Made by a program: the position numbers and the translations under genes
Assembly: GCA_015062585.1 (NCBI GenBank)
Contig: SUUJ01000001.1
Coordinates: forward strand, 72,736 to 136,735
Reading direction: 5' to 3'
DNA: 64,000 nt
From: Alphaproteobacteria bacterium
Lineage (GTDB): Bacteria; Pseudomonadota; Alphaproteobacteria; RF32; CAG-239
Shown here: in pieces, positions 13,680 to 30,418 of the stretch
Numbering within the stretch: the first letter of the stretch is position 1
Layout: every line of letters starts with the position of its first letter
The notes under the pieces: model-generated
The model's input: the letters and a program-made list of their open reading frames with translations, nothing else
The model's database searches: none
What the model was told of the DNA's origin: nothing

Positions 13680-13698
13680 CAATTATTTTTCAAAACAT

Positions 13699-13733: not shown

Positions 13734-13745
13734 AGAGAATACCGT

Positions 13746-14498: not shown

Positions 14499-14759
14499 TT
14501 ATATCATCAGGGTTTTCATATTCTCATTCAGCCATTTTTCGATACCTTGTCTGGCAATATTGCGAAAATTTTCGATTCTTTCGACAGAGCTTGTTTTAAT
14601 AAAATCGGCAATTTGTTTATCGGAGAGTCCTTCGATATAATCCCAAAACGAAAATATCAAATTGACTTTTCTCGGCCACACTCCGTCATTTATAAAAATA
14701 TTTTCTTCAAAATCGAAGAACAGTTCGTTTAGTTTTTCAAAAATTTCTTTATCAGTCAT
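14499..14759 (-). CDS. hypothetical protein (start trimmed to internal ATG with AAGGA RBS)
   Basis: ORF 14499-14816. 'MTDKEIFEKL' start is preceded by aagga 9 nt upstream. No motif. Confidence 0.35.
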   Translation of the reverse strand: MTDKEIFEKLNELFFDFEENIFINDGVWPRKVNLIFSFWDYIEGLSDKQIADFIKTSSVERIENFRNIARQGIEKWLNENMKTLMI

Positions 14760-14861
14760 TGTAGTATCCTTGCATTGTATAAATACAATAGATAATACAC
14801 TTGTATATAAAATCAATATAAATATTGTTTATTTACAATATTGGTGGATAAAACTTCAAAG

Positions 14862-15563
14862 CTATATTTTTCTTGTTATACAAAATATCTTTCCGCAGAT
14901 ATTCAATGACTTGATATCTTTGACCAAAAACGGCTTATAAGAAGGATTATCAGAAGATATTTCGACCGAATTATCAAAAGGATTGGTTTGAACACGGCGA
15001 ATAATCGTGTCGCTGTTGGTAGATATCATATAGATACCGTCAGAAGATGGAATACTATAAGACAAATCAACCCAGACAAAGTCACCGGCATTTATGGTTG
15101 GTGACATCGAATCGCCGCAGACCTTAAATATCAAAACATTCTCACTTGTCTCTGAATAGTGATGGTTAAACAGCTCTTTAGTTATAATTTCTTTACCGAT
15201 AAGATTCTGTTTTATTTGGTCAAATTTACCTTTCTTTTCGCCGTTCATATCAATAACATCAATTGCTATCATCTCAGAATTGCCGGTTTTACTAAAATTA
15301 AAAAAGCTTGTCAAAGCTGAAAATTTGTCTTGAATAAGATTGTTCGGTAAAGGAAAATCGCACAAATCCTGCTCATTAACATCGAGGATTCTTGCCAGTT
15401 TTCTTCTGGTGTTTTCATCCAATCTTTTGGGTGAGTTTCTTTTTACAAAATGGAATAAATAAGTAGAGTTTTTGCCAAGTTGCAAAGAAAGGGCATTCAG
15501 ACTGAAGCCTTTTTCTTTTACTTTTTTTTCTAACAAATCTCTAACCTGCTGCAACTTATCCAT
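14862..15563 (-). CDS. phage CI/LexA-like repressor (XRE HTH + S24 peptidase)
   Basis: N-terminal HTH region. C-terminal 'FKVCGDSMSPTINAGDFVWVD' S24 Ser motif plus downstream Lys. Confidence 0.8.
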   Translation of the reverse strand: MDKLQQVRDLLEKKVKEKGFSLNALSLQLGKNSTYLFHFVKRNSPKRLDENTRRKLARILDVNEQDLCDFPLPNNLIQDKFSALTSFFNFSKTGNSEMIAIDVIDMNGEKKGKFDQIKQNLIGKEIITKELFNHHYSETSENVLIFKVCGDSMSPTINAGDFVWVDLSYSIPSSDGIYMISTNSDTIIRRVQTNPFDNSVEISSDNPSYKPFLVKDIKSLNICGKIFCITRKI

Positions 15564-15615
15564 AATAACGATTCCCTTTGTATATTGTTAAAATACTTCA
15601 ACTTTATATTGCATT

Positions 15616-15696
15616 TTTACAACTTTGTAAACAGGTTTTACAAAAAAATATGAATTTATATTGACCTTAAATTTTTTCTGTATTGTAATATTACAA
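15616..15696. promoter_or_regulatory. candidate repressor operator palindromes in the divergent promoter region
   Basis: tttacaa-ct-ttgtaaa (15616-15631) and perfect ttgtaat|attacaa (15683-15696) share TTGTAA/TTACAA half-sites. Third half-site cattgtaaaa at 15703. TTGACC -35 at 15661. Confidence 0.45.
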
Positions 15697-15728
15697 TAAA
15701 TCATTGTAAAAAACTATCGGAGCTATTT

Positions 15729-16226
15729 ATGATTAAATATACTTCTAAGCAAGATGTAACAAATAAAGGAATCGTAAAAAGAAATGGCAAAATATTAAAA
15801 TTGTCTGTTTTGGAAATATGGCATTCTAAAGGGTTTCTTGATTACACACCGTCAAAATACAGCGCCGACGAAAGACTTAGTTGCGGCTTAAGGCTTGCAC
15901 TTGACGCTTATATCATAAATCGAGCCAATTTACATTCATCTCATCGACTAAATACCAAAATCGACAACAATAATAATACTCAATCAGCGGCAATACTAGA
16001 AGCTATGCAGCGTTATAACCGGGCAATAAGGTCGGTTCCGGCAGAATTTTGGCCGGTTGTACGGCTGGTTTGCATTGAAGATCGCGATTTGGTTGCGCCG
16101 AACGAACTTAGTGAAAGGCACAAAAGCCATTTTTATTATATGAACAGAGTAGATTTGTGTCGGGGGTTGGATAGGATTATTGATATACAACAAAAGGTTG
16201 AAAATCAATGTTTAAGACAATTTTAG
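15729..16226 (+). CDS. hypothetical phage early/regulatory protein (possible late-gene regulator)
   Basis: 165 aa, divergent from the repressor. Followed by a promoter + terminator arrangement before the packaging genes. No motif recognised. Confidence 0.35.
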   Translation: MIKYTSKQDVTNKGIVKRNGKILKLSVLEIWHSKGFLDYTPSKYSADERLSCGLRLALDAYIINRANLHSSHRLNTKIDNNNNTQSAAILEAMQRYNRAIRSVPAEFWPVVRLVCIEDRDLVAPNELSERHKSHFYYMNRVDLCRGLDRIIDIQQKVENQCLRQF

Positions 16227-16439
16227 CTTTACATATTGAAAAAAATATTGTAACGATAATAAAAAATAAACTAGGGGACTAAAAATGGACTATATAGAAA
16301 TTTATGCAATTTTCTTCTTAATATTAAATGTTGCAAATCAAATAAGATTTGGTTGTTTATACACACATCTGATTTTTAGTATAGCCCTAGAAATTCCTAT
16401 ATTAGGACGAGTTTTTATGATATGGTGAAAAAATTTTTT

Positions 16440-16527
16440 TTCACTTATATTGACTTATCCGTCAGGTGACATTACAAATATAAGTATGGTGAGTAAGTGG
16501 GTTCAAACACTTCTCACCTTTTTTTAT
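16440..16527 (+). promoter_or_regulatory. candidate late promoter followed by an intrinsic terminator (antitermination-type arrangement)
   Basis: TTGACT-17-TACAAAT, then hairpin ggtgagtaagtg..cacttctcacc + T7 immediately upstream of the terminase small subunit gene. Confidence 0.35.
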
Positions 16528-16547
16528 GAATTGATTGGTAATAAGGA

Positions 16548-16961
16548 TTGATTGTTATGGGATTGGCGCATCCGGTAAAATATTCTTCGGTCTCGGCGAT
16601 GGAAAAAAAGATTGAAAAATATTTCAACGAACGCGCCAATTTTAAATCCGAAGTATATAGTCCCAAAAAAGGTGATATTGTAGAAATAGTTGAACAAGCC
16701 CCGCTTCATTTGACGGGGCTTTGTGATTATTTGGGTATTTCGAATCAAGACTTGGATGAATATCAACAAAAAGAAGAATTTAGCGAACTTATTCGCAGAG
16801 CCAAAAAAAAGTGCGAAGCCTATTTGGTTGATCAATGCGTCAGGCTTCACAAAGCCGATTTTATCTTAAAAAACAATTTTCCTGCTGCTTGGCAAGATTC
16901 GTCCGAGAATATTGTAGGGGAAGAACTGAAAAAAATATTGGTAGAATTTGTAAACAAATAA
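16548..16961 (+). CDS. phage terminase small subunit (putative)
   Basis: 137-aa acidic protein directly upstream of terminase large subunit. Confidence 0.5.
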   Translation: MIVMGLAHPVKYSSVSAMEKKIEKYFNERANFKSEVYSPKKGDIVEIVEQAPLHLTGLCDYLGISNQDLDEYQQKEEFSELIRRAKKKCEAYLVDQCVRLHKADFILKNNFPAAWQDSSENIVGEELKKILVEFVNK

Positions 16962-16973
16962 AAGTGAAACAAT

Positions 16974-18299
16974 ATGAACGATAAAACAATTACGGCGCAA
17001 ATACCTCAAATTTTTGCGCCTCTGCTCATTACTCAAAAAAGAATCAAATTTTATTATGGCGGGCGAGGTGGCGGAAAATCTTATGCTTTTGCCGACAGCC
17101 TTTTATTAAAAGGGCGAATGGAAAAACTTCTTATCGCTTGTCTGCGCGAGGTTCAAGACAGCATAAAAGATTCGGTCTATCGTCTTTTGTGTGATCGAAT
17201 TTCATTTTATCAAATGAAAGATTACAAGATTTTAGAATCTCGTATCGAAAATAAGATTACCGGCACAAAATTTATTTTCAAAGGACTTCGTGACCAAGAC
17301 GCTCAAAAAATAAAATCTTTGGAGGGCGTTGATATCGCGTGGATTGAAGAAGGACAAAGCATTTCTAAAAAATCGTGGGATATTCTGTCTCCGACTATCA
17401 GAAAAGACGGTTCGGAAATATGGATTTCGATGAACCGTAACGAAGAAAATGATCCCTTATGGGTGCTATTGGCTGCCAATCCTGACGAGCGAACCATGGT
17501 GGTCAAGGTAAATTATTATGACAACCCGTTTTGCCCCGAAGAACTTAAAATTCAAGCCCAAAAGTGCAAAAAAGAGCACCCCGATGATTATGCTCACATT
17601 TGGCTCGGGCAACCGCTAAGCCAAAGTTCGGCAAAGCTTATTGCACCAACCGATGTCAAACACGCCTTTGAAAGCAAAATATCTTCTTGCGATTCGCCTT
17701 TGGTTATCGGGCTTGATATTGCAAGGTTCGGGGATGATTCCACGGTGTTTTGTTTCAGACGAGGGCGTTATTGTCAGCGCTTTGAAGTATTAAAAAAACA
17801 AGACACCGTATCAATTGCAAACTATTGTCAAGGAATTATCCAAGCGCATAATCCGGCTCGAGTTTTTTTAGATGTCGGAGGAATAGGCGCCGGAGTTTAT
17901 GACATATTATACTCACGAGGATTTCGTTCGACAATTCGTGCCATAAACTTTGGTTCAAAGGCCATATTAGAAGACAGATATGTCAATCGTCGTGCCGAAA
18001 TGTGGGATAATGCTCGTGCTTGGCTGTGTCAGGAATTGCCGGTGCAACTTCCATGTGATGACGAGTTGTTAAATGATTTGTGCTCAGTTAATAAAAAATA
18101 TGATTCACTCGGGCGGCTACAATTAGAAAGCAAAGACGAAATCAAAAAAAGACTGGGGCGTTCACCTGACAAGGCGGACGCCTTTGTTCTAACTTTTGCC
18201 GAACCTGTTTACGATGTAGGCAAAGCCAAAACATTTGGAAACGGTCAGGTCGTTTTGGAAGATATGTTTGCTAATTCTTACAAAGAAAGCAAATGGTAA
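16974..18299 (+). CDS. phage terminase large subunit
   Basis: Walker A 'YGGRGGGKSYAFA' near the N-terminus. 441 aa. Size and position typical. Confidence 0.8.
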   Translation: MNDKTITAQIPQIFAPLLITQKRIKFYYGGRGGGKSYAFADSLLLKGRMEKLLIACLREVQDSIKDSVYRLLCDRISFYQMKDYKILESRIENKITGTKFIFKGLRDQDAQKIKSLEGVDIAWIEEGQSISKKSWDILSPTIRKDGSEIWISMNRNEENDPLWVLLAANPDERTMVVKVNYYDNPFCPEELKIQAQKCKKEHPDDYAHIWLGQPLSQSSAKLIAPTDVKHAFESKISSCDSPLVIGLDIARFGDDSTVFCFRRGRYCQRFEVLKKQDTVSIANYCQGIIQAHNPARVFLDVGGIGAGVYDILYSRGFRSTIRAINFGSKAILEDRYVNRRAEMWDNARAWLCQELPVQLPCDDELLNDLCSVNKKYDSLGRLQLESKDEIKKRLGRSPDKADAFVLTFAEPVYDVGKAKTFGNGQVVLEDMFANSYKESKW

Positions 18300-18340
18300 C
18301 ATTTTTTAACACTAACTCACAATATAAGGAAAATAAACAA

Positions 18341-18598
18341 ATGATAAATGCAGTTGCCGACCGGATATTTATTCGGTTAGCTCCGGATACTACCGCCACA
18401 TCCGGCGGTATTATTTTAGTTGATGATTATCACCGTACCCGAAATATCGGTGTGGTGGAAAGCATCGGCGACTTGGTCACTTCGGTCAAGGTCGGAGACA
18501 AGGTCTTGTTTCATCAATTTGATGAATTGCCGACACCGGATGATGACTTGGTTGTTGTTAGAGAAAATTCAATTTTAGGAGTTTATGAAGATGAATGA
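18341..18598 (+). CDS. GroES-like co-chaperonin (phage-encoded cpn10 homolog)
   Basis: 'ADRIFIR..ATSGGIILVDD..GVVESIG..VKVGDKVLFHQF..ENSILGVYE' tracks the GroES consensus (DRVLVK..KTAGGIVL..GxVxAVG..VKVGDxVLFxKY..DILAV). Start trimmed to the ATG with AAGGA RBS. Confidence 0.65.
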   Translation: MINAVADRIFIRLAPDTTATSGGIILVDDYHRTRNIGVVESIGDLVTSVKVGDKVLFHQFDELPTPDDDLVVVRENSILGVYEDE

Positions 18599-20411
18599 AC
18601 AAATATTTTACTCGCAAAAATCAGAGGTTTCTGATTGGCTGGAAAAGATTGCAAAATCTGAAAAGTCATATAATGAATATCACAAACTTTTTGATGATAT
18701 TCGCAAATATTATCGCAACGAACTGCGTAAAGATAAGCAAAATATTTTTTGGTCTTCAATTGAAACGCTAAAGCCGTTTTTGTATTTCAAACAACCGAAA
18801 CCATATGTCGAACGCAAAGAAAAAAGCGATAACAGAGTTCACAATTTGGCTTGCCGAATTATAGAAAAAGCTCTTTGCAACAATCTTGAACAATTTGATT
18901 TTGACAGCATTATTAAATATGCCAGAAACGACTTTTTATTGGGCGGATGCGGTATTGTCATAGAAAGATACAAGCCTGAATTTACATCGCTCAGTGATGA
19001 GAATGGCAATATTTTTGAAATTAAAACCGATGAAAAAGTCGTTACCGAATATGTTGATCCGCTAAACTTTATTTGTGATACCGACAAAGTCGGAACTTGG
19101 GAAGATTGCACTTGGTTTGCCATAAAGCAATTTATGACATTTGATGAAGTTGTTGCAAATTTTGGTGACGAATTTAGAAATTTGCTTTTTGATTATTCAC
19201 TAAAAGATGCCAAATCAATAGAAGTTTACGAGATTTGGGACAAAAAAACATTACAGGTTTTATATGTAACAAAAGCCTTACCTCATACATTCTTAAAAGT
19301 AATTTCCAAGAGCGCCGTATCGGGAAGTTTTTTTCCGATACCCAAGCCTTTGTTTGCTACAACCACCAACGACAGCATAATTCCGGTACCGGATTATGTT
19401 CAAATCAGGCCTTTGTTAGATGAGCTTGACGGGGTTACGGCCCGCATGGAAAAGACAATGAAAGCCTTAAAAATTTCCGGCTGTTATGACAATGCTTTTC
19501 CCGAACTTGCCAACATCTTAAACAAGGATACAACCTTGGTTGGCGTGTCTGATTTTGACAGATTAAAATCTGCCGGAGGAATTAAAAATATTGTCGATTT
19601 TATGCCCATTGACCAATATGTAACCGCGTTGCAAACCCTTTCCTCCCGTCGCAAAGAGATAATTGAGGCAATTTATGAGATAACCGGCGTTTCCGATATA
19701 ATGCGAGGTGTTTCAAATTCTAATGATACCGCGACAGCTGTAAACAAAAAGACCAATTTTGGAACATTGCGCAATCAGGATCGTCAAAATGATATGAATC
19801 GCTTTATATCTGAGATTTTCAAGATTAAGGCAGAATACATTTGCGAATATTTTGATACTGAAAAATTGCTGTCATATCTTTCAATCACAGAGCAAATGTC
19901 GACAGAGGCTCAACGAGCCGTTGCGCTGTTAAAAAATGACAAATTGCGTGATATGGTCTTAGGAATTGAAAGCGATTTGACTTTTAACGAAGCTGATAAA
20001 AAAGCGCAAAATATTGAGGCTATAACCTCGATTCACACCATGATCTTACAAGCTTTTGATGTGGTCAGCAAACAGCCGGCGCTTCTTGATTTGTATCGCC
20101 AAATGATTTCAGGTGTTGTGGCTTGTCTTTCAAATGCCCGCCAGTACGAAGGGGTTTTGGTAAATTGTTTTGATAAAATTGCTCAAGAATTTGCCACACC
20201 GGATGCACCGGCGGAAAAACAACCCAATACCCAACTTATAGCATTGCAAATGCAGAGCCAACGCAATGCTTGGGATTATGAAATTAAAAAAGAGCAAAAC
20301 GAAATCAAAAAAACTGAGTTGCTATTAAAACAGCAACAGGAAGAAGCTAAAAACAAACAGGCGGATAAAGAGCTGGATATTGAGCTGATAAAAACTGCTG
20401 CAAATAAGTAA
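18585..20411 (+). CDS. phage portal protein (putative)
   Basis: 608 aa between terminase and scaffold/capsid. Acidic coiled-coil C-terminus. Confidence 0.55.
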   Translation: MKMNEQIFYSQKSEVSDWLEKIAKSEKSYNEYHKLFDDIRKYYRNELRKDKQNIFWSSIETLKPFLYFKQPKPYVERKEKSDNRVHNLACRIIEKALCNNLEQFDFDSIIKYARNDFLLGGCGIVIERYKPEFTSLSDENGNIFEIKTDEKVVTEYVDPLNFICDTDKVGTWEDCTWFAIKQFMTFDEVVANFGDEFRNLLFDYSLKDAKSIEVYEIWDKKTLQVLYVTKALPHTFLKVISKSAVSGSFFPIPKPLFATTTNDSIIPVPDYVQIRPLLDELDGVTARMEKTMKALKISGCYDNAFPELANILNKDTTLVGVSDFDRLKSAGGIKNIVDFMPIDQYVTALQTLSSRRKEIIEAIYEITGVSDIMRGVSNSNDTATAVNKKTNFGTLRNQDRQNDMNRFISEIFKIKAEYICEYFDTEKLLSYLSITEQMSTEAQRAVALLKNDKLRDMVLGIESDLTFNEADKKAQNIEAITSIHTMILQAFDVVSKQPALLDLYRQMISGVVACLSNARQYEGVLVNCFDKIAQEFATPDAPAEKQPNTQLIALQMQSQRNAWDYEIKKEQNEIKKTELLLKQQQEEAKNKQADKELDIELIKTAANK

Positions 20412-20423
20412 AAGACTAATCAA

Positions 20424-20654
20424 ATGACATATTTTACCAAAGAATTTTCGGAAGATTTCATTCTTCCGGACAACACGGTCGCGACCTCATCGCAGGATAT
20501 CGACCGTTTCTTAAAGGCCAATAATCTGGCCTTAATGTCTGATTATTCTGACGAATATATGAAAAATGTTCGTTTGGATAATGATAAAGCTCAGCGAAAA
20601 GAAATTTTTGCCGAGGTTGTTCAACAATACAAAAAAAGGATATGGAATGAGTGA
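20424..20654 (+). CDS. small phage protein (76 aa)
   Basis: Stop overlaps the start of the scaffold gene (ATGA). Confidence 0.3.
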   Translation: MTYFTKEFSEDFILPDNTVATSSQDIDRFLKANNLALMSDYSDEYMKNVRLDNDKAQRKEIFAEVVQQYKKRIWNE

Positions 20655-21471
20655 AACTAAAGAAGATTTACAAGCTTTTGTTCAAGAGGATGAAACTGTT
20701 ACTCCTCAAGAACAAAATATTGAAGAAGCTTTGGGTGAGGATGAATTTTTAGAAGCACCCAAATCTTATGAAAAGGAATTAGCTAAGACTTTTTGCGAGC
20801 TTCCTCTTAACTGGCGCAAATACCTTTACACCAGAGAAGAAGAATTGGACAAAGGTTTTAGCGATTTGCGTGAACGAGCTCTGATGTATAAATGGTTGGA
20901 CGAAGTTTATACTTCGCGCTCGGATGAACTGCAAAAAGATGGTATCAAAAACTCTGATGATTGGCTTAAAAAAATGGTAGAGGTTGATGCCATGCTGAGC
21001 CAAAATCCGGCAGATACCATCAAAATGTTGGCTGTTTCTTACGGAATAAGCGACAGCAAAGAAACGCCAAACTCCGGAGTAAACAATCAAGAAACAAACC
21101 TATCGGAGATTATAAGTAAACAGCTTGTTGATAAGCAATTAAGCGATTTCATAGCCGAACTGGATGACGAGGGTGCCTTAAAACATCCGTTCTTCAAAGA
21201 GGTGGTTAAAGATATGCACGAACTCATTTCAAAGGGTGTGGCTAAAGATTTGAGCGAAGCTTATGAAACGGCTGTTTGGTTAAACTCTGCTACCAGAAAC
21301 AAATTGATTGAAAAACGCACCAAAGACGCGCTCGAGTTAAAAAGCAAAGATGCTATAAAATCGAAAGAAGCTGCTTTTGCACCTAAAGGCAAGGCTCCCT
21401 TAAACAAAAAGGATTTAACCCTGCGCGAAGAACTTGAAATGCGTTTTGCCGAACTTGGCGATAAATTTTAA
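20647..21471 (+). CDS. scaffolding protein (putative)
   Basis: Acidic, coiled-coil-rich, ~274 aa, immediately upstream of the capsid gene. RBS aggatatggaATG. Confidence 0.45.
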   Translation: MSETKEDLQAFVQEDETVTPQEQNIEEALGEDEFLEAPKSYEKELAKTFCELPLNWRKYLYTREEELDKGFSDLRERALMYKWLDEVYTSRSDELQKDGIKNSDDWLKKMVEVDAMLSQNPADTIKMLAVSYGISDSKETPNSGVNNQETNLSEIISKQLVDKQLSDFIAELDDEGALKHPFFKEVVKDMHELISKGVAKDLSEAYETAVWLNSATRNKLIEKRTKDALELKSKDAIKSKEAAFAPKGKAPLNKKDLTLREELEMRFAELGDKF

Positions 21472-21500
21472 ATAATAATTTTTTTAGAAAGGGAAAAATA

Positions 21501-22469
21501 ATGGCTAACAGCAATTATGATGAAATTTTTACAACTACCTTGGAATCTCGTAGTGCAAAGTTGGCTGACAATGTAACTAAAAACAACGCATTGTTAAACC
21601 GCTTAAAAGAAAAAGATAAAGTACGCCCGATTTCCGGTGGTTCAAAAATTTTGGAAGAATTAGAATATGGCGAAGGCGATATGGTTTGGTATTCCGGTTA
21701 TGATACCATCAGCTATACTCCGAAACAATTGTTTACCGCAGCCGAATATGCAATCAAATTAGCTGCTGTTCCTGTGGCTGTATCAGGCGAAGATTTATTG
21801 AAGAACTCAGGTCCGGAACAAGTTTTGGAATTGATGGAAAAGCGCATTCAAAATGCCGAAAAAACTATGGCCAATCAATTAGCAGCCGCAATGTATGGCG
21901 ATGGTACTGCCGCTGACGGTAAAGCAATAGGAGGCTTAAAACTATTGGTTGCCGATGATCCGACATCAGGAACAGTCGGTAATATCAATCGAGCTACTGC
22001 CGGCAACGAATTTTGGCGCAACCAATCAGCAACTTATGAAGGTTTGACTTCAGAAAACATTTTGCAGGCCATGGATGAAATGTATCTGAAATGTACTCGC
22101 GGCTTTGATAAGCCTGATTTGATTGTGGTTGATGACAAATTGTACTCAACTTTTGAAAATGCTTTGACACCTTTGGCTCGCTTTAGTGATCCGAAACTTG
22201 CCGAAGCCGGTTTTGCCAACATCAAATACAAAGGTTGCGATGTGATTTATGATGGTGGCCAAGGCGGTTATTGTCCTGACAATCATATGTATTTCTTAAA
22301 CACCAACTACATCTATTTGCGTCCTCACAAAGATCGCAATATGAAGGTAATCGGTGGTGACAGATTGTCAATCAACCAAGATGCAATGTATCGCATTATC
22401 GGTTGGGCCGGCAATATGACAATGTCAAATGCTGCTTTGCAAGGTGTTTTGATTAACACTGTTGCTTAA
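21501..22469 (+). CDS. major capsid protein (putative)
   Basis: 322 aa after the scaffold gene, followed by a strong terminator. Gly/Ala-rich. Confidence 0.5.
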   Translation: MANSNYDEIFTTTLESRSAKLADNVTKNNALLNRLKEKDKVRPISGGSKILEELEYGEGDMVWYSGYDTISYTPKQLFTAAEYAIKLAAVPVAVSGEDLLKNSGPEQVLELMEKRIQNAEKTMANQLAAAMYGDGTAADGKAIGGLKLLVADDPTSGTVGNINRATAGNEFWRNQSATYEGLTSENILQAMDEMYLKCTRGFDKPDLIVVDDKLYSTFENALTPLARFSDPKLAEAGFANIKYKGCDVIYDGGQGGYCPDNHMYFLNTNYIYLRPHKDRNMKVIGGDRLSINQDAMYRIIGWAGNMTMSNAALQGVLINTVA

Positions 22470-22510
22470 AAACTATATTAAGTATCAACTTTTAATTTAC
22501 GCTAACTTCA

Positions 22511-22548
22511 AAAGGGAAGCCTTGATAATTATTAAGGCTTCCTTTTTT
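22511..22548 (+). terminator. rho-independent terminator after the capsid gene
   Basis: aaagggaagcctt-gataattatt-aaggcttcctttttt. Confidence 0.65.
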
Positions 22549-22564
22549 ATTAAGGATTTTATCA

Positions 22565-23122
22565 ATGGATTTTGCAACATACCAAAACTTAATAAATCAA
22601 AATAAACATAGGCAAGACGACAGCTTATCAGTTCGCTTTTATGACAAATCGATAAAATGCGCCAACCTTAATGACAATGGTATTCCGGTATTTAAGTCGG
22701 TATGCTATTGCGAAATACGAATAAAAGACAACACTACCGAAGTTTTTGATCAGCCTGCAACTAAAGACAAGATTGATCGTTTTCCCATTGAATATGCCAG
22801 ATATCAACTGAGCAAACAAAAATCAACCAATGGTACGCCTTTGGAAATGTTTGCTTTTTTAAGCGCCGCCGAAATAGATATGTGTAAATATCGCGGTATC
22901 TTCAGTGTAGAAGATTTTGCCAATATCTCACAGGAACAGGCAAAATCATTGCAACTGGAAAAAGAATGGACTTTGGCGCAAAAATTTATTTTATCAGGCA
23001 AAGCAATTAAAAAAATTATCGATATTGAGGACTTGGAAGAAAAGTATAAAAGCCAAATTGATAAGTTAAAGCATCAAATTAAAGAACTAAGCAAAACCAA
23101 ATCAAGGAGAAAAAGCAAATGA
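22565..23122 (+). CDS. phage hypothetical protein
   Basis: 185 aa, C-terminal Lys-rich coiled coil. Confidence 0.35.
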   Translation: MDFATYQNLINQNKHRQDDSLSVRFYDKSIKCANLNDNGIPVFKSVCYCEIRIKDNTTEVFDQPATKDKIDRFPIEYARYQLSKQKSTNGTPLEMFAFLSAAEIDMCKYRGIFSVEDFANISQEQAKSLQLEKEWTLAQKFILSGKAIKKIIDIEDLEEKYKSQIDKLKHQIKELSKTKSRRKSK

Positions 23123-23832
23123 AATCAATTTTAGAAATATGTCAGGAAGTAGCCGACCTTGCGGCCACCAAAAGACCTCAAGATTTGTTTAATCCGGCAT
23201 CACAGCAAGATGCCATATTTTTAAGTACTGCCAAATCGGCGTTGGACAGTCTTTTGCGCTACGGTGATTGGCAAGAGCTTACCAAAGAAGGCATTTTAAG
23301 AACTTCGGGCAAAAAAGATAAGTATTTGATGGAAGAAGTTTGCCCCGATTTTTACAGTATCTTGAATAATACAATTTATGTAAAAGACGGTAACGAAAAA
23401 CTGATTGGAGCAATTACGCCGCAAGATTGGATGCGCGAAAAATATTTTAATGAGGCAAGCTCTAATACCAAATTTATTATTCAAAACGGAATGATAAAAT
23501 TTTTAACACCACCGGCAGACGGTATCAAAATTGTTTTTCAATATCGTTCCGATGTTGTTTGTCTTGATGCTAAAAACGGCTATATGGAAAAAAGCTCAAT
23601 TACTCAAAACACCGATATTCCGGTGTTTGACGAATATTTGGTAAAGCTCGGAATCTTGTGGCGTTGGCTTAAACGAAACGGAATGGATTACAGCGAAGAA
23701 TATAATGAGTACGAACGCGAAATAAAGAAAAAGTTCGCTTCATCAATGGCAATTAAAGACATTATTTTGTCTGCTTCAAATGATGATGTCGCCGCAAAGG
23801 GAGTATCAATTCATGTTAAAACTGACAAATAG
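23119..23832 (+). CDS. phage structural protein (head-tail adaptor / tail tubular A-like?)
   Basis: 237 aa, between the head genes and a large structural gene. Speculative. Confidence 0.3.
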   Translation: MKSILEICQEVADLAATKRPQDLFNPASQQDAIFLSTAKSALDSLLRYGDWQELTKEGILRTSGKKDKYLMEEVCPDFYSILNNTIYVKDGNEKLIGAITPQDWMREKYFNEASSNTKFIIQNGMIKFLTPPADGIKIVFQYRSDVVCLDAKNGYMEKSSITQNTDIPVFDEYLVKLGILWRWLKRNGMDYSEEYNEYEREIKKKFASSMAIKDIILSASNDDVAAKGVSIHVKTDK

Positions 23833-25366
23833 AGGCAATAAATCCGTAAATTATACCTTGCCGGCACCTTGTGGCGGGCTAAATATTCGTGACAGCCTTG
23901 ATGAAATGGATGCTTCCGATGCCATAAAAATGGACAACTATATTCCCGGTGATACCAAAGTAAGCTTAAGAAAAGGATATACTCAGTATGTCAGGACTAA
24001 AAAATCTTTTTTAACTTTGGCTTCATATAAAAAATATAATTCTTCGGTTTTTATAGGTATTTCAAATGGTCAAGCCTATAACTTAACATCCAAAAGAAAT
24101 GTTCGAACCTTTGAAAATATATCCTTTACCAACAGCCGTTGTCATACTTTTCAATATAAAGACAGACTGTTTTTTATGAACGGGGTGGATAAGCCGAAAG
24201 TATTTTATGTTGATGAAACAGATAACGAAAAATTTGAAGACTGGTCATTTACCGGCGAAGGTTTAATTGCCGAAAAAATAATAGCAGGCAGTGTATCCAA
24301 ACAATTTTTATGGTTTATCGAAAGGGGAAGCATGAATGTTTGGTATACCTCGGAAGGCGGAAATATTGCCGGCAATTTGTATCAATTTGATTTAAGTTCG
24401 GTTTCGCGTTTTGGCGGTCATATAATGGCTGTTTGCTGTTGGACACTCGACGGAGGGCAGGGACTTGATGACTTGACAGTGTTCATAACATCGGAGGGCG
24501 AAGCCTTAGTATATTCCGGTACCAATCCGAATGATGCTGATAACTGGGAATTAAAAGGATCGTACAAAATTGCCAAACCGATAGGTTATAAATGTACTTT
24601 AGCTTATCAAGGCGATGTGGTTATCATCACCGAAGACGGATATATGCCGTTGTCAAAAGTTTTGCCTCTAAATCAAGCTTCAAATTCGGCAATTGCCTTT
24701 TCCGACAAAATAAGAGGCCTTGTATTGTCAAGAACAGCCAATAACAAGAACAAAGACGGCTGGCAGGCAATAATTTATCAAAAAGGCGGATACGCCATAT
24801 TTAATGTTCCCGTTTATAGCAATTTTGAACAACATGTCATAAATTTGAGCAACGGTGCGTGGTGTCGTTTTACCAATATCAAATCATACTGTTGGGAATT
24901 GTTTGAAGGGCGTTTGTATTTTGGTTCTGACTATGGCGTTTATTTATTTGATGATGGTTATTCCGATGCCGGTAATCATATTTATGGCGAAGTTGAACAG
25001 GCTTATTCAAATTTAGGATTCGATGGTTTGAAAAAAATTCAACTCCTAAATCCTCGCACCAAGTCATCAACGCAATATGCTTTGGTCATTTATACCAATA
25101 TGGATTTTGAAGAACGCGAAGAAGCCTATGCCGAAAACTTGGGCTTTTCCGGTATAACCAAATGGAACGAGGCTAAATGGTCATGTTTGAAAAATCCGAT
25201 AGGTACCAAATGGCAAACCTTACGCGGCAAAATTCGTTCACAATGGATAGCCAATTCATCGACCGGTTTTAAGGCCGGTATTGTTTTTAAGACCAAAACC
25301 AGAGGAAATCTCATTGAATGGTATGATACGGGGGTAAGATATGAAAAATCCGGAGGACTATTGTAA
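23813..25366 (+). CDS. phage structural protein (tail tubular B-like or tail protein?)
   Basis: ~517 aa. Start trimmed to the ATG with AAGGGAG RBS that overlaps the upstream stop. Confidence 0.3.
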   Translation: MLKLTNRGNKSVNYTLPAPCGGLNIRDSLDEMDASDAIKMDNYIPGDTKVSLRKGYTQYVRTKKSFLTLASYKKYNSSVFIGISNGQAYNLTSKRNVRTFENISFTNSRCHTFQYKDRLFFMNGVDKPKVFYVDETDNEKFEDWSFTGEGLIAEKIIAGSVSKQFLWFIERGSMNVWYTSEGGNIAGNLYQFDLSSVSRFGGHIMAVCCWTLDGGQGLDDLTVFITSEGEALVYSGTNPNDADNWELKGSYKIAKPIGYKCTLAYQGDVVIITEDGYMPLSKVLPLNQASNSAIAFSDKIRGLVLSRTANNKNKDGWQAIIYQKGGYAIFNVPVYSNFEQHVINLSNGAWCRFTNIKSYCWELFEGRLYFGSDYGVYLFDDGYSDAGNHIYGEVEQAYSNLGFDGLKKIQLLNPRTKSSTQYALVIYTNMDFEEREEAYAENLGFSGITKWNEAKWSCLKNPIGTKWQTLRGKIRSQWIANSSTGFKAGIVFKTKTRGNLIEWYDTGVRYEKSGGLL

Positions 25367-25775
25367 TATAATTTATGACAACAGTTTGGCCGACTGGGTA
25401 TGCAAAGGGTTAAAAACCGACAAATCATGGCTTGAGGGTGAATATCATACAATCGGATTTAAGTTAGGAAATAAATTACTCGGCGGACTTATTTATCATA
25501 ACATCAGACCCAAAAGGGATTTATGGATGACAATTTACACCGCTGACAAAAGGTGGTGTTGCAGGCGAGCTCTCAGAGTTATATTCGGGCTCGCTTTTAA
25601 TTTGTGGCAAGTGGAACGCATCAGTATTTTAGTATCGGAAAACAACAATTCTTGTATAAAACTGGTTGAAAAACTCGGTTTTAAAAAAGAAGGAGTTTTA
25701 CGCAGATATTCTGATGACGGTTCTGATTGTCTTTTTTACGGAATGTTAAAATCAGAAAACGAATGGAGTAAATAA
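25341..25775 (+). CDS. GNAT family N-acetyltransferase inside the structural module
   Basis: 'RRALRVIFGLAF..VERISILVSENNNSCIKLVEKLGFKKEG' acetyl-CoA-binding motif region. Confidence 0.55.
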   Translation: MKNPEDYCNIIYDNSLADWVCKGLKTDKSWLEGEYHTIGFKLGNKLLGGLIYHNIRPKRDLWMTIYTADKRWCCRRALRVIFGLAFNLWQVERISILVSENNNSCIKLVEKLGFKKEGVLRRYSDDGSDCLFYGMLKSENEWSK

Positions 25776-25776
25776 T

Positions 25777-26451
25777 ATGAGCAAATCAATAGGAAAACTG
25801 ATGGGTGCCGGCGGAGCACCTACAACAATGTATGGTTCAGAAAATGCGGTGCTAAATTATCTCAATAATTACAATACAAGCAATTATGATAATACATTAA
25901 ATAATTTGACTTCATACGCCTCAAATGCTTCAAATCAACTAAGTAATATGGGTGATTACAATTTTAGCGTAAATGCGTCAGATGAAGCCAGAAACAGGGC
26001 AGAACAGGCTACATATCAGTCGTATGTCGACAAACTTCAACCGCAATTTGCCGCGCAAATGTCAGAGTTACACACTTCTTTGGCAAATAAAGGCATACCG
26101 GTTGGCTCACAAGCCTATCTAAATGCTATGGGTAGCCTGAATGCCTCACACAACAGTGCCTTAAATCAAGCAGCTTATCAATCGGTAACAGCAGGTCAAG
26201 AGGCATATTCCAACAGCCTAAACGATCAAATAAATTCAGCCAGCTTTGCCAATGATGCACAAAGCAATTACATCAATCAATTGCTTCAGGCCTTGCAAAA
26301 TTCTTATTCAGGTTACGATATTGCCATGGATAAATACAATATTCAAAACAAAGGCGAAACTCGTATCGGTGAAAACAAAGCTTATAACACCGCCGCTCAA
26401 GTTGCTGAGGGTAACAGAGTTATAGATAACACAATCAGAATATTCAAATAA
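25777..26451 (+). CDS. Asn/Ser/Gln/Ala-rich low-complexity phage protein (fibre-like?)
   Basis: 224 aa, compositionally biased. Confidence 0.3.
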   Translation: MSKSIGKLMGAGGAPTTMYGSENAVLNYLNNYNTSNYDNTLNNLTSYASNASNQLSNMGDYNFSVNASDEARNRAEQATYQSYVDKLQPQFAAQMSELHTSLANKGIPVGSQAYLNAMGSLNASHNSALNQAAYQSVTAGQEAYSNSLNDQINSASFANDAQSNYINQLLQALQNSYSGYDIAMDKYNIQNKGETRIGENKAYNTAAQVAEGNRVIDNTIRIFK

Positions 26452-26474
26452 AAGTTTTTAGAGAGGAAAATAAT

Positions 26475-27248
26475 ATGCCATTTGACAGTGAAGGAATGTT
26501 TTCCCGTCTGCATAATTGGGAAGACGACAGGATAAATGATATAGACATTGTAACCGATCATATGGATGAAGAAGATAATAATTTTGCCGATGGTCTCAGC
26601 CAATGTTTCTTAAAAAACGGAATTTCAAAAATGGAGGGCAACTTTAATGTCGGCAATTTCAAAATTATGAATTTGGCCGAGGGAACTCTTCCATCAGATG
26701 CCGTAACCAGAAGCCAATTGGACAGTGCTTCACAAATAGCCAAAGAATTTATGAACAATTTGATAAAAGTCGGCGATATCAAAGCTTCGGTAATTGCGCA
26801 AAATCACGATAATTGGATTTTGTGTAACGGACAGGAGTTATCGCGAAGCGATTACAGTGAGCTTTTTGAAATTATCGGCGAAAATTTCGGCAAAGGCAAT
26901 GGGGTTACAACTTTTAATGTACCTGATTATCAAGGTAAGTTTCTGCGTGGATTTGGTGGAAATTCAGCTGAAAATATCTACACATTACAAGAAGAAAGTT
27001 TGCCCAACATCGCCGGCAGTATCAACTCTGTTCCGTTATCTTCTAATTCGCCGGCGCAAACAGGAGCATTGTCTTCTGAAACAGCATCAGGTTCGCAAAA
27101 TTTTTCCGGCTCGGGATCAAGTAATCGTCCATGGAGAAGTATTGATTTTGATGCTTCTAAATCAAATAAAATATATGGTGCTTCAGAACATGTAACTCCG
27201 GAAAACTATGCGGTTTATTGGTTTATCAAGGCAAAAAGAGAAGAATAG
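26475..27248 (+). CDS. tail fibre protein with phage tail-collar domain
   Basis: 'ILCNGQELSRSDYSELFEIIGENFGKGNGVTTFNVPDYQGKFLRGFG' matches the collar-domain pattern LxCDG..S...YP.LF..IG..YG.GDG.TTF.LPD.RGRF. Confidence 0.7.
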   Translation: MPFDSEGMFSRLHNWEDDRINDIDIVTDHMDEEDNNFADGLSQCFLKNGISKMEGNFNVGNFKIMNLAEGTLPSDAVTRSQLDSASQIAKEFMNNLIKVGDIKASVIAQNHDNWILCNGQELSRSDYSELFEIIGENFGKGNGVTTFNVPDYQGKFLRGFGGNSAENIYTLQEESLPNIAGSINSVPLSSNSPAQTGALSSETASGSQNFSGSGSSNRPWRSIDFDASKSNKIYGASEHVTPENYAVYWFIKAKREE

Positions 27249-27257
27249 GAGGTAAAA

Positions 27258-27617
27258 ATGGTTGGTAAAATAACTCCCAATTATATTGAAGTTCGTCAAG
27301 GTGACAATTTTTCGATTTTGCTTCAATTTAAGGATGAGGATAAATTTATAGATATCAGCGGTTCAGTATTAAAAATGTTTGTAAAAAACAAAGCTGACGG
27401 CAAGACAGTTCTAATAAAACAAGGGATAATTGATGATGGGGAAAGGGGCAAATCTCACATTTCGATTCTTCCGGAAGATACTAAAAAATTGAATGTAAAA
27501 GATGAGTTTATTACCGATATTCAAATAACTTTTGCTAATGGTGAAACTCACACAATTTATCCGCAATCAATCGGTCAGGTAGCAGCCTTTATTGTTACTC
27601 AACATGTTACGGAGTAA
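27258..27617 (+). CDS. phage hypothetical protein (119 aa)
   Basis: Intact ORF between the two fibre genes. Confidence 0.3.
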   Translation: MVGKITPNYIEVRQGDNFSILLQFKDEDKFIDISGSVLKMFVKNKADGKTVLIKQGIIDDGERGKSHISILPEDTKKLNVKDEFITDIQITFANGETHTIYPQSIGQVAAFIVTQHVTE

Positions 27618-27622
27618 AAACA

Positions 27623-29251
27623 ATGGAAAATACAATCACTTTAACGACCGGTCAAAAAATCGAAGTTTTAATGCAAGATGAAGTAACTTTAGATATTGAT
27701 TGCTCACTTCGTTACATTGAATCGGGAAAAAAAGAAATCGAAACTTATGTGGAAGACATATCTAAACAGCGCCTTAATTCAATTGTTGAAGACGCCAAGC
27801 TACAAATGGATAAGCAGATTGAAGCCGGTGTTGTTGAAGCTCAAGAAAAAGCAGCTATTTCAGCTAAAGAAATTATTGACGAAAATATTTCTTCAATGAA
27901 AAGCGAAATTGACAATTATATCAATAATGATATCAAGCCCGAAATAGAAGGTGCCAAATCGGAAGCAATAAAATCAGCAGATACAGCCGTAGAGGCCGCA
28001 AATTCGGCTTTGTCATCATACAACGGGCTAAAATCCTCATTAGAATTGGCTCAAGAAGTGGCAAGCGGAAATATCGGTGATATCAAGTACACTTTAAGAA
28101 ATACAGAACCCTATGGCGGTGTTTTTTGTAATGGGCAGATATTGACAGAAGAACAATATCCCGATTTATATCAAATGTTGCTCGATGACAGACTTGAAAA
28201 AGTATCTTTAACAGAATACGAAAGTCAGGTAACATTAACCGGTGCTTGTAATTTTTTTGCTATCGATGAGATAAATCAAACGATTAAAGTTCCGACAATA
28301 ACATCAGAAACCCCGGATAAAAGGGCTTATGTTGTTTGTTATACCGGAAAAGATATCGAAATTGACATTACTCAGGAAATAGCTCTCAACAATCCGTTCT
28401 CTTTATTAGACTACAAATGGAGCGAATATGAGCTAAACAATGCTTCTTGGTTACTTTCAAATGGTGCTTTCCATAGTGGAGCAATTTATGTATCTGTTTA
28501 TGAACTCTTGCTAAATATTTATAACGGAACGCAAACAAAAGAAGGTGTAAGCGTTAAGTTATCGACAGAAGAATATACCGATACTGATTTTGTTATCAAT
28601 ACCGCTGATACAACTTTCAGATTACCGATTAAGGTAAAGCTTGCAAGTGGTAATATGATAGTTGGCAATGGTAAACAAGGAATTGGTGTCACAACAGGAA
28701 ATAATGATTTTGCACTATATAATTCAGCAAGTGCTACAACAGGAATTGGTTCCTATGCGGGATTCCAAGATGTAGGAACAGCAGGACATACAGTTTCAGG
28801 TGGCGAAAATAAAGTGTTAGGTATTACCACAGATCCTCTCAAATCCGGCATAGAAACATCAGCTCAAGGTTTATATTTGTATTTTTATGTCGGCGAAACA
28901 ATCCAAGATGCTAATTTGATAAGTGCCTCAGGCGTATTCACGGCTCTGTCCAATAAGGTTGGATTTGATGACAAAGAAACCATTATTGGTTGGGGTATGC
29001 CTGATTATTCTGCAGAAATTGCTTTAACATCAGGAAGCAATCCACATCAGTTAGGATATGTTATGTTTGTTGGTAACGATGTACAAAATGGCTATGCTTT
29101 GGGATATATTGATGGGGTTCAGGTTTTTAGATTCGGTAGTAATGGTTATCAAGCCGGTGAAACAGCGGGAATGTATTTAGTAAATGAACTGAATACTATT
29201 ACAACGGAAAGGGCAACGATAAAATTCTATCCGCTCAAAGGAGTAAATTAA
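27623..29251 (+). CDS. second tail fibre protein with tail-collar domain
   Basis: 'VFCNGQILTEEQYPDLYQML' collar motif. 542 aa with Gly-rich distal part. Confidence 0.65.
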   Translation: MENTITLTTGQKIEVLMQDEVTLDIDCSLRYIESGKKEIETYVEDISKQRLNSIVEDAKLQMDKQIEAGVVEAQEKAAISAKEIIDENISSMKSEIDNYINNDIKPEIEGAKSEAIKSADTAVEAANSALSSYNGLKSSLELAQEVASGNIGDIKYTLRNTEPYGGVFCNGQILTEEQYPDLYQMLLDDRLEKVSLTEYESQVTLTGACNFFAIDEINQTIKVPTITSETPDKRAYVVCYTGKDIEIDITQEIALNNPFSLLDYKWSEYELNNASWLLSNGAFHSGAIYVSVYELLLNIYNGTQTKEGVSVKLSTEEYTDTDFVINTADTTFRLPIKVKLASGNMIVGNGKQGIGVTTGNNDFALYNSASATTGIGSYAGFQDVGTAGHTVSGGENKVLGITTDPLKSGIETSAQGLYLYFYVGETIQDANLISASGVFTALSNKVGFDDKETIIGWGMPDYSAEIALTSGSNPHQLGYVMFVGNDVQNGYALGYIDGVQVFRFGSNGYQAGETAGMYLVNELNTITTERATIKFYPLKGVN

Positions 29252-29252
29252 A

Positions 29253-29615
29253 ATGAAAAAATACGCAAAAGTAATAAATGAAGAAACCAAAGCTTGTGAA
29301 GTTGGCTTGGGTACTAACTCTGCTTTTTATCAATCTATCGGTATGACTGAAATGGAAGTTGAGCAAGCTTATGACGGTAGTTGGTATGTTTTCGGGTTTA
29401 CTCCTGAGAAACCTGTACCGACAAAAGCTGATATTCAAAAAAATCGTGCAGAATTATATCGAATTAAGGTCGATCCGATTACTTCTCAAATCTCAAGGCT
29501 CAGAGATGAGGAACAAACCGATGATATTTTAGCAGAAATTGAAGCCCTTAAAATCAAAAGAGCTGAAATTGTTGCAAAAATTAAACAAGAAAATCCTTAT
29601 CCTGACCAGGAGTAA
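29253..29615 (+). CDS. tail fibre assembly/chaperone-like protein (putative)
   Basis: 120 aa immediately after the fibre gene. Position only. Confidence 0.3.
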   Translation: MKKYAKVINEETKACEVGLGTNSAFYQSIGMTEMEVEQAYDGSWYVFGFTPEKPVPTKADIQKNRAELYRIKVDPITSQISRLRDEEQTDDILAEIEALKIKRAEIVAKIKQENPYPDQE

Positions 29616-29619
29616 TAAA

Positions 29620-29814
29620 ATGCCCGAAAATATCATTGAAGACAGCAAGGTGATAGGTTCTGCCTCAATTGCCGTACTACTGGACTATGCTCAGATTTTT
29701 AACCAATTGATAACTCTGATGATAAGTGTATGCACCTTAGTTTATGTGGCCAACAGAGCTTATTACAGCTTATTTATACATAAGAAGAAAAAAAGGAAAG
29801 GAAAACGCAAATGA
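29620..29814 (+). CDS. holin-like small membrane protein
   Basis: 64 aa, one TM 'VIGSASIAVLLDYAQIFNQLITLMISVCTLVYV', highly basic C-terminus, immediately upstream of the endolysin. CAGGAG RBS. Confidence 0.5.
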   Translation: MPENIIEDSKVIGSASIAVLLDYAQIFNQLITLMISVCTLVYVANRAYYSLFIHKKKKRKGKRK

Positions 29815-30281
29815 TAGATATGTATACTGTCTGTCAAAGATTGATACTACACGAAGGGTTGCGATTGCAACCCTATTTTTGTAGCAAAAATAAGCTAACA
29901 ATCGGAGTAGGAAGATGTGTGCAAACTAATCCTATAACCGCCGAAGAAGAAAAGGTTATCGGGGACTGGCAGCACGGAATCACCAAATGCTCGGCTATGT
30001 ATCTTTTGCGCAACGATATCAAAAGAATATACAAAGAATTAAAAAAAGAGCTGAAATTCTTTCCTGATCTGGATTCTGAACGACAATATGCCTTAATTGA
30101 TATGGCTTTTAATATGGGAACATTCGGTTTGTTACAATTCAAAAAAATGCTAAAAGCCATAGAGTGCGGTAACTATCAATTAGCAGCTAAAGAATGTCTT
30201 AATTCCAAATATGCCAAAGAAGTCGGACAAAGAGCTTTAAGAATTGCTGATACTTTGGCTACCGGAGAGTTCAAAATATGA
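29811..30281 (+). CDS. GH24 lysozyme-type endolysin
   Basis: 'HEGLRLQPY..KLTIGVGR' resembles T4/lambda lysozyme 'EGLRLKxY...YTIGIGH'. Confidence 0.7.
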   Translation: MIDMYTVCQRLILHEGLRLQPYFCSKNKLTIGVGRCVQTNPITAEEEKVIGDWQHGITKCSAMYLLRNDIKRIYKELKKELKFFPDLDSERQYALIDMAFNMGTFGLLQFKKMLKAIECGNYQLAAKECLNSKYAKEVGQRALRIADTLATGEFKI

Positions 30282-30418
30282 CAAAACTTAAAAATATTAT
30301 AATCGTAGCCTTCGTTTTAACAATTCTATTGTTAATGATATTACGACCGCAATATCAAGAACAATCAATAAAAGCCCTTATAAAACTTATGGAGTGTGAA
30401 CAATGCTTAACCGAGTAG
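30278..30418 (+). CDS. small single-TM protein (46 aa; antiholin/second holin-like). Not in the ORF track
   Basis: Hand translation MTKLKNIIIVAFVLTILLLMILRPQYQEQSIKALIKLMECEQCLTE. ATG overlaps the endolysin stop (ATGA). Confidence 0.35.
   Translation: MTKLKNIIIVAFVLTILLLMILRPQYQEQSIKALIKLMECEQCLTE

Follow-up and report, generated by a model that had tools for sequence, protein, structure and literature searches.

The locus considered here raises the question of whether a phage-derived element in a gut bacterium encodes its own lid for the host chaperonin GroEL. It lies in a stretch of 64,000 nucleotides (the window, i.e., the whole DNA that was analyzed) from contig SUUJ01000001.1 of an Alphaproteobacteria bacterium (assembly GCA_015062585.1), in which an open reading frame (ORF) of 85 codons is located between the genes for the large terminase subunit (TerL) and the portal protein. 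A first-pass annotation, made from the letters alone, had taken the product for a phage-encoded GroES homolog that capsid-protein folding might require. As judged from its sequence and predicted structure, the product is a Cpn10/GroES homolog with a resemblance to cpn10 far beyond chance, and its gene belongs to the core gene set of Mx8-like podophages and prophages found in uncultured Alphaproteobacteria of the gut and rumen. The protein is considered, with some confidence but with substantial room for doubt, to act as a co-chaperonin for host GroEL in head assembly, with the portal protein and/or the capsid protein as client.

The 85-residue protein matched the Pfam profile PF00166 (Cpn10) with 44.7 bits (gathering cut-off 21.1 bits; E-value 1.4e-11), covering profile positions 2-93 of 93, and PHROG 3188 ('co-chaperonin GroES') with an E-value of 5e-14; its other Pfam and PHROG matches were only weak ones to GroES-like alcohol dehydrogenase domains. 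The closest sequence match in the Protein Data Bank (PDB) was the Chlamydomonas Cpn20 co-chaperonin (3e-10), followed by bacterial GroES and human Hsp10. An AlphaFold2 monomer model built on 23 family members had a mean predicted local distance difference test score (pLDDT) of 79 and a predicted template modeling score (pTM) of 0.67, with strands at residues 8-13, 36-42, 54-57, 70-74 and 78-81 and a low-confidence stretch between the first two. When the model was compared with the PDB using Foldseek, the best 30 matches were all GroES, Cpn10 or Hsp10 chains (best E-value 1e-5), with template modeling scores of 0.63-0.74 for most matches and a maximum of 0.74; GroES-like alcohol dehydrogenase domains appeared only lower in the list. 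Regarding viral predicted structures (BFVD), 68 matches were obtained at an E-value of at most 0.001, and the named ones among the matches listed were phage GroES proteins. Profile and structure searches therefore bear out the cpn10 identity. The first-pass annotation had also named a different fold without a mobile loop as the result that would speak against it; structure prediction gave a GroES fold, and the mobile loop is present.

The translation of the ORF at 18341..18598, MINAVADRIFIRLAPDTTATSGGIILVDDYHRTRNIGVVESIGDLVTSVKVGDKVLFHQFDELPTPDDDLVVVRENSILGVYEDE, contains all three motifs on which the cpn10 assignment had originally been based (TTATSGGIILVDD, VKVGDKVLFHQFDELP and SILGVYEDE). 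The product is deposited at NCBI as MBE6467056.1 ('co-chaperone GroES [Alphaproteobacteria bacterium]') in a longer reading of 101 residues that starts at an ATG at 18293. The originally proposed start at 18341 is preferred, because 121 of the 214 unique homologs are exactly 85 residues long and the N-termini of the homologs align to the GroES N-terminus; a Shine-Dalgarno-like AAGGA at 18326..18330 likewise supports it over the upstream start. The start of the portal gene overlaps the stop of the Cpn10 gene within ATGAATGA, and an alternative portal ATG is found at 18585. The reported neighbors, TerL at 16974..18299 and the portal gene at 18585/18591..20411, are confirmed, and the flanking terminase, portal and head genes place the gene in a phage-derived carrier and inside the head-morphogenesis block. 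A terminator-like hairpin at 18391-18410 (plus strand; 7-bp stem with five G-C pairs, followed by a T-run) covers the codons for TATSGG of the mobile loop and is probably a by-product of the coding sequence.

The protein is homologous over its full length to Escherichia coli GroES (PDB 1AON), with which it shares the predicted beta-barrel, a mobile loop of equal length with Gly-Gly and a hydrophobic triplet, and the terminal strands (D-R-V/I-F/L-I at the N-terminus and I-L-G-V at the C-terminus). The identity to E. coli GroES is about 26% (alignment A2), and family members are 25-35% identical in tblastn comparisons. Among the 214 unique homologs the mobile loop is conserved at T20 (85%), G22 (93%) and G23 (95%), and the triplet that follows consists of I/V/L at position 24 (99%), I/L/F at position 25 (100%) and L/I/V/M at position 26 (98%). 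Positions 14-19 vary and have insertions and deletions, and the loop is the least confident block of the model (pLDDT 61). A variable loop that ends in a conserved triplet is the pattern expected of a flexible tether with a GroEL-docking motif.

The protein departs from ordinary GroES in two places. Nine residues of E. coli GroES ('GRILENGEV'), which form the roof beta-hairpin, are missing; this gap recurs in the PDB sequence alignments, no hairpin is present between strands 36-42 and 54-57 of the model, and three further residues are deleted relative to E. coli GroES after the next strand. The roof hairpin is counted among the features of a functional GroES and is absent from the 85-residue protein, but it is not universal, and the best-fitting NCBIfam GroES model (NF001537) covers 86 positions only. 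The N-terminal domain of the Chlamydomonas chloroplast Cpn20 (PDB 7EKQ chain R) aligns through the roof region without a hairpin insertion; Cpn20 is, unlike the 85-residue protein, a tandem two-domain eukaryotic organellar co-chaperonin, and the similarity reflects common family features, not a specific relationship. The second departure is the family-specific body motif F-H-x-F-D-E-L-P, with F57 conserved in 99%, H58 in 97%, F60 in 95%, D61 in 100%, L63 in 98% and P64 in 91% of the 214 sequences. It is joined by a second near-invariant segment, V71-V-V-R-E-x-S-I/L-L-G80, which is also specific to the family.

A word-index protein search returned 134 relatives at an E-value of at most 0.001, nearly all of them 84-86 residues long, and all but one of the 120 relatives listed had 79-109 residues and a Cpn10 Pfam domain. 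IMG/VR contained 11 loci with a relative, and a copy with 59.5% identity is present in MT835830, an unannotated record of an uncultured phage from human feces; in a tblastn search of 50,697 phage records, related sequences were found only in MT835830, together with a borderline match in a Staphylococcus phage. A scan of GTDB species representatives found the gene in 95 genomes, nearly all of them labeled as uncultured gut or rumen Alphaproteobacteria. Records titled 'Azospirillum sp.' and metagenome-assembled genomes (MAGs) of Rhodospirillales, sampled from humans, ruminants and mice, are among them; a few others are MAGs of Bacteroidales or Clostridia, which are probably mis-binned.

The linkage of the gene was counted in 109 fetched loci, with a portal match in 108 and a TerL match in 95. 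The portal gene starts at most 400 nt 3' of the Cpn10 gene in 105 of the 108 loci (at most 120 nt in 98), and TerL lies at most 400 nt from the Cpn10 gene in 81 of the 95. The Cpn10 gene is separated from the portal gene only in two IMG/VR contigs (L011 and L012); TerL is found 3' of the Cpn10 gene in these two loci and in L111 and L112, and ten loci have an insert of 0.6-2.4 kb between TerL and the Cpn10 gene. In the sister clade represented by L111-L113 the gene order is repressor, orf158, Cpn10, portal, fibers, lysis, TerL, scaffold and major capsid protein (MCP) (locus positions about 8800-20250), i.e., the Cpn10-portal pair has been relocated jointly and the terminase has remained with the capsid genes. 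A reading of this loop-poor sister clade as decaying remnants, prompted by the short contigs L107-L110 (Cpn10, portal and fiber genes, no terminase or capsid gene), was rejected, because the longer contigs L111-L113 carry the terminase and capsid genes downstream; the gene order of the sister clade is a rearrangement, not decay.

The junction between TerL and the Cpn10 gene is itself a cargo hotspot, with inserts at 7750-9864 in L049, 4415-6145 in L065 and 8994-9926 in L081, and with cargo also in L001, L043, L048, L060, L067, L084, L086 and L093. The inserts examined consisted of unrelated cargo: a 577-residue unknown protein, a Mu-F-like head protein domain and a protein resembling serum amyloid A. 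The insert of L081 contains a 147-residue ORF that matches the Pfam family 'Serum amyloid A protein' with 68.8 bits (cut-off 30.8), an odd family for a prophage.

The MCP of the element shares 48.6% identity with its counterpart in Myxococcus phage Mx8 and 45-48% with the counterparts in Bradyrhizobium phage ppBjS10J-1 and Stenotrophomonas phage BUCT555. These three phages have a colinear head-tail module (TerL, portal, small ORF, scaffold, MCP, tail protein), and the colinearity extends to a 520-residue protein annotated as 'amidase' and an acyltransferase. TerL directly adjoins the portal gene in all three, without a Cpn10 gene, which points to a single gain at the root of one sub-lineage within the Mx8-like podophages. 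The Cpn10 homologs examined showed no frameshifts or internal stops. The ratio of non-synonymous to synonymous substitution rates (dN/dS) of the Cpn10 gene was 0.09-0.15 in comparison with three loci that share the chromosomal context of the window and 0.24 in comparison with a more distant locus, and the structural genes of the element, with dN/dS values of 0.004-0.2, are under purifying selection. From locus to locus, the identity of the Cpn10 proteins rises and falls with the identities of TerL, portal and MCP. By these measures the Cpn10 gene is functional and under purifying selection; the phage lineage has passed it on vertically as a selected core gene and has not recently captured it from a host.

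Between the window and L021-L023, which have MutS and the flavin reductase in common with it, the synonymous divergence (dS) of the element genes was 0.6-2.0 (MCP 0.63-0.76), whereas that of the adjacent host genes (MutS, histidine kinase) was higher, at 1.6-3.1. The lower values of the element argue against simple co-divergence with the host; the element may be younger than the species split, or may have been exchanged between species at the same site.

In the proposed mechanism the Cpn10 gene would be transcribed together with the terminase and portal genes, with a translation that may be coupled to that of the portal, as the observed gene overlap suggests. The product is predicted to fold as a GroES beta-barrel and would form a heptameric lid, the full-length mobile loops of which, with their conserved G-G-I-I-L, could dock on the apical domains of host GroEL. 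This lid would lack a roof, and the near-invariant F-H-x-F-D-E-L-P would lie close to the part of the dome that faces the cavity, a position presumed from the GroES structure. Host GroEL would in this way be redirected to phage head proteins. The 35-kDa capsid protein (322 residues) would fit the chaperonin cage and could be encapsulated, and the candidate to which genetic linkage points is the 69-kDa portal protein; the closest genetic link of the Cpn10 gene is to the portal gene, not to the capsid gene. The portal protein gpB of phage lambda requires GroEL and GroES and provides a precedent for a portal client.

Several observations weigh against a GroEL-dependent role in head assembly. With 606 residues the portal monomer of 69 kDa is above the limit of about 60 kDa that is usually quoted for encapsulation under a GroES cap. 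Capsid proteins with 45-49% identity occur in phages without a Cpn10 gene, so this type of head is not generally dependent on one. The NCBIfam equivalog and subfamily models for GroES gave a best score of 35.2 bits, below all of their cut-offs (96-142). The strongest constraint in the family is on the F-H-x-F-D-E-L-P and VVVRExSILG segments of the body, not on the mobile loop, and sister clades with 40-50% identity, found in apparently intact elements, have a loop that is 3-4 residues shorter and lacks the Gly-Gly, in some cases without a clean hydrophobic triplet (e.g., 'SAIWQPE'). In the wider family, constraint is thus not greatest on the loop. Heptamer formation and GroEL binding are inferred, and the structure models are of monomers. 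Finally, the host GroEL and GroES are seen neither in the window nor in the fetched loci: a Pfam scan of 38 of the larger ORFs of the window, and tblastn searches of the window and the fetched loci with E. coli GroEL and GroES sequences, did not find host groES or groEL.

Some of this evidence also speaks for the idea that the GroES fold was repurposed and that the protein is an assembly factor or minor structural protein independent of GroEL, acting directly on the portal either as a chaperone of its oligomerization or as a head-completion protein like gpW of phage lambda, the gene of which has the same map position between terminase and portal. The Cpn10-portal pair behaves as a conserved unit (105 of 108 loci) that survives both the rearrangement in L111-L113 and cargo on the terminase side, although adjacency is equally expected if the portal protein is a chaperonin client. 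The most invariant residues belong to a family-specific motif of the barrel body rather than to the loop, the protein scores far below the GroES equivalog cut-offs, and the sister clades that shorten the loop and lose the Gly-Gly have retained both F-H-x-F-D-E-L-P and the portal neighbor. In the clade of the window itself, however, the docking signature (a full-length loop with Gly-Gly and three hydrophobic residues) is conserved at 93-100% in the 214 sequences, a pattern that would be difficult to account for if GroEL were not involved; the significant structural matches are all to co-chaperonins, a seven-fold ring would be mismatched with the twelve-fold portal, and no portal accessory or head-completion protein is known to have a GroES fold. 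A GroEL-independent role is for these reasons regarded as unlikely, though it is the main alternative. An identity as a gpW-like head-completion protein was rejected: the map position fits, but no match to the gpW fold or family was obtained, and the significant structural matches were all to GroES. In a bolder version, held to be quite improbable, the Cpn10 and portal genes would form a dedicated two-gene module in which the roof-less lid adapts GroEL, or acts alone, for folding or oligomerizing the portal protein, and which may sit in a domesticated element resembling a gene-transfer agent (GTA) or serving lateral transduction. If this were true, a compact element (about 16 kb) that derives from an Mx8-like podovirus, has no integrase or replication genes and is maintained by purifying selection in many Alphaproteobacteria of the gut would be a producer of particles rather than an ordinary prophage.

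The conserved GroEL-binding loop would also suit a takeover or blockade of GroEL that shuts down host folding or evades a GroEL-dependent response instead of folding a particular phage protein, and modulation of GroEL by a phage has a precedent in T4 39.2 (as cited in PMC5649160). The gene is, however, part of a late structural operon, in overlap with the portal gene, rather than among early takeover genes, and it persists in compact elements from which the early regions have been lost, which leaves this explanation with very little probability. That the gene is a recently captured host groES (a moron or auxiliary gene) or a functionless, decaying remnant is hardly credible. The element in the window does look defective, without integrase or replication genes, and the NCBI product name is plainly 'co-chaperone GroES', but cellular GroES proteins are only 25-33% identical and the word-index search returned family members only. 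The fixed position in more than 100 loci, a divergence in step with the structural genes, a dN/dS of about 0.1 and a single gain at the base of the lineage, as indicated by the cultured out-group phages without the gene, all speak against it. Recent host capture and a chance ORF were both rejected on these grounds.

Unlike cellular groES, the Cpn10 gene of the window is not adjacent to groEL but lies within a phage late operon. No Cpn60 gene was found beside it in the window or in any fetched locus, where its neighbors are terminase and portal genes. The first-pass annotation had suggested that it might compensate for an unusual host GroES; as the gene is carried in 95 host species genomes, the peculiarity of one host's GroES does not explain it.

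Phage co-chaperonins had been described as rare, and this did not hold: of 2178 phage genomes in GenBank, 165 had a co-chaperonin gene, and viromes yielded 1479 full-length viral GroES sequences (Marine et al. 2017, PMC5649160), to which the 68 BFVD matches and the existence of PHROG 3188 as a named family can be added. The roof hairpin is missing from some clusters of the virome sequences. The loop triplet is non-canonical in 23% of viral GroES (Marine et al., PMC5649160), which weighs against the GroEL-independent role. T4 gp31 and RB49 CocO are phage-encoded, GroES-like lids without a roof hairpin that are used with host GroEL in head morphogenesis and are required for folding of the capsid protein (PMC5649160); they are strong precedents for the proposed role. 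Both are proteins of large lytic E. coli myoviruses, and gp31 is nearly without sequence similarity to GroES; the protein of the window differs from them in being a recognizable Cpn10 that is encoded next to the portal gene in a small podovirus element of temperate type. T4 gp31 was not among the 50 PDB structural matches listed for the AlphaFold2 model. To our knowledge, functional work on phage GroES proteins is limited to gp31 and CocO, each of which acts on the capsid protein of a large lytic phage.

Closer in kind are the SAR11 podophages HTVC023P and HTVC027P and the Pseudoalteromonas siphovirus B8b, which carry GroES genes, that of B8b in the structural module. These, the GroES proteins of PHROG 3188 and of virioplankton and that of Campylobacter phage NCTC12673 are stand-alone GroES without a phage GroEL, like the gene of the window; several have 83-88 residues, some lack the roof hairpin and some are located in structural modules. 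Their sequence identity to the clade of the window is low, and the fixed place 5' of the portal gene and F-H-x-F-D-E-L-P distinguish this clade from other viral GroES. Phage GroES proteins are thus a known kind, and the protein of the window was already labeled GroES at NCBI; what looks new is the clade itself, its fixed position before the portal gene and its body motif. A full-text literature search found no description of the portal-adjacent position, the body motif or the clade.

The window as a whole is bacterial chromosome, with a G+C content of 27-40% (in 2-kb windows) and with host genes that include those for MutS, flavin reductase, FlgE, bactofilin and M23 peptidases; host genes are found on both sides of the element. 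A summary of the features is shown in Table 1. The minus strand of the element carries a small ORF (orf86) and an S24 (cI/LexA-type) repressor. On the plus strand, orf165, a 47-residue ORF, the small terminase subunit (TerS), TerL, Cpn10, portal, a 76-residue ORF, a scaffold-like protein and the MCP are followed by tail proteins, an acyltransferase, collar-domain fibers, a holin, a lysozyme and two spanin-like ORFs.

Table 1. Coordinates of the Cpn10 gene, its parts, neighboring genes and the carrying element in the window.
Feature	Coordinates	Strand	Basis
Phage-derived element, ~16 kb	14499..30742		Pfam, PHROG and NCBIfam matches and gene order
Small terminase subunit gene (TerS)	16557..16961	+	Pfam GP3_package, PHROG 606; gene call in L015
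Large terminase subunit gene (TerL), 5' neighbor of Cpn10	16974..18299	+	Pfam Terminase_3 1e-37, PHROG 3717
Shine-Dalgarno-like AAGGA	18326..18330	+	10 nt 5' of the ATG at 18341, read from the sequence
Cpn10/GroES-family gene, 85 residues	18341..18598 (stop codon included)	+	ORF, ATG start, TGA stop
Mobile loop, codons 14-34, including T20-x-G22-G23-I24-I25-L26	18380..18442	+	Same length as the E. coli GroES loop
Site of the missing roof beta-hairpin, codons 44-45	18470..18475	+	9-residue gap relative to E. coli GroES 'GRILENGEV'
F-H-x-F-D-E-L-P motif, codons 57-64, family-specific, not canonical GroES	18509..18532	+	214-sequence alignment
Portal gene, 3' neighbor of Cpn10	18591..20411	+	PHROG 12082 1.3e-106, weak P22_portal match; gene call in L015
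Putative scaffolding gene	20647..21471	+	By position, colinear with Mx8 p47; no Pfam or PHROG family match
Major capsid protein (MCP) gene, 322 residues, candidate chaperonin client	21501..22469	+	PHROG 9953 6e-109; 48.6% identity to the Mx8 major head protein

All structural genes of the element are intact. Integrase and replication families were not found in 12420-30742 with Pfam, PHROG or NCBIfam, and a direct-repeat search of 11.5-33.5 kb for att-like repeats gave only short repeats at chance level; the tRNA-Asp gene at 32820 lies past a host M23 peptidase gene, outside the element. An empty site was not found in a metagenome scan with the neighboring flavin reductase, which returned one contig of the same species and distant homologs in unrelated contexts. 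Other species of gut Alphaproteobacteria carry the compact unit with the identical left edge (small ORF and repressor) beside quite different host genes, in at least four contexts; these host genes include CrcB, flavodoxin and phosphodiesterase (L101-L103), a tRNA synthetase and CorC (L106), and AspS and OmpH (L111-L113). The unit was also seen in L175 and L177, and the IMG/VR provirus call of L175 spans exactly orf165 to the last spanin gene (Rz1), 15,433 bp. An early region, which encodes ERF, a clamp-like protein, a C5 methylase and DUF6291, is found in larger relatives (L036).

Like a GTA, the element has genes for head, tail and lysis but none recognized for replication or integration; it may be a prophage that has become defective, an element dependent on a helper or a system of GTA type. 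Phages with similar capsid proteins package 39-50 kb, and particles of a 16-kb element would therefore carry other DNA. According to a 2026 paper (PMC12946183), the Faecalibacterium element FpGTA, which it describes, is the only GTA-like element known from human gut commensals.

Some further observations concern the rest of the element and its surroundings. A 528-residue protein encoded at 23780-25366 (plus strand) belongs to PHROG 5107, labeled 'amidase' (lysis), and Mx8 p52 has the same label; the gene is situated among tail genes and the protein has no Pfam or NCBIfam amidase domain, so that the label seems to be an annotation error that has been passed on. Two ORFs without a family match separate the host flavin reductase from the element, one of 419 residues (12420-13679, plus strand) and one of 225 residues (13746-14423, minus strand), the latter Cys-rich and with a hydrophobic N-terminus. 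Pfam, PHROG and NCBIfam gave no match for these two or for orf165, and NCBIfam gave none for orf86. The 419-residue protein is only 82% identical in contig L114, where the flanking host genes are 99-100% identical, and the Cys-rich protein is 50-58% identical in loci with MutS at 85-89%; both ORFs are fast-evolving and are possibly surface or cargo genes. A small serine recombinase of the resolvase/invertase type (37211-37894, plus strand) adjoins a cluster of glycosyltransferase genes (37920-43399, minus strand) with a G+C content of 27-29%, and the two could form an invertible or horizontally acquired surface-polysaccharide locus.

Nothing in these results overturns current understanding. 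The clade is small and recognizably GroES-like, which makes it easy to test in E. coli, and given a single gain in a well-defined phage type, the Mx8-like relatives without the gene are natural controls; its genetic tie to the portal gene is a third useful property. The hosts are uncultured but widespread gut Alphaproteobacteria, represented by 95 species genomes, and the element is of interest as a possible vehicle of gene transfer in the gut. The clade could show which head protein creates the need for a phage's own lid, and what the loss of the roof hairpin achieves.

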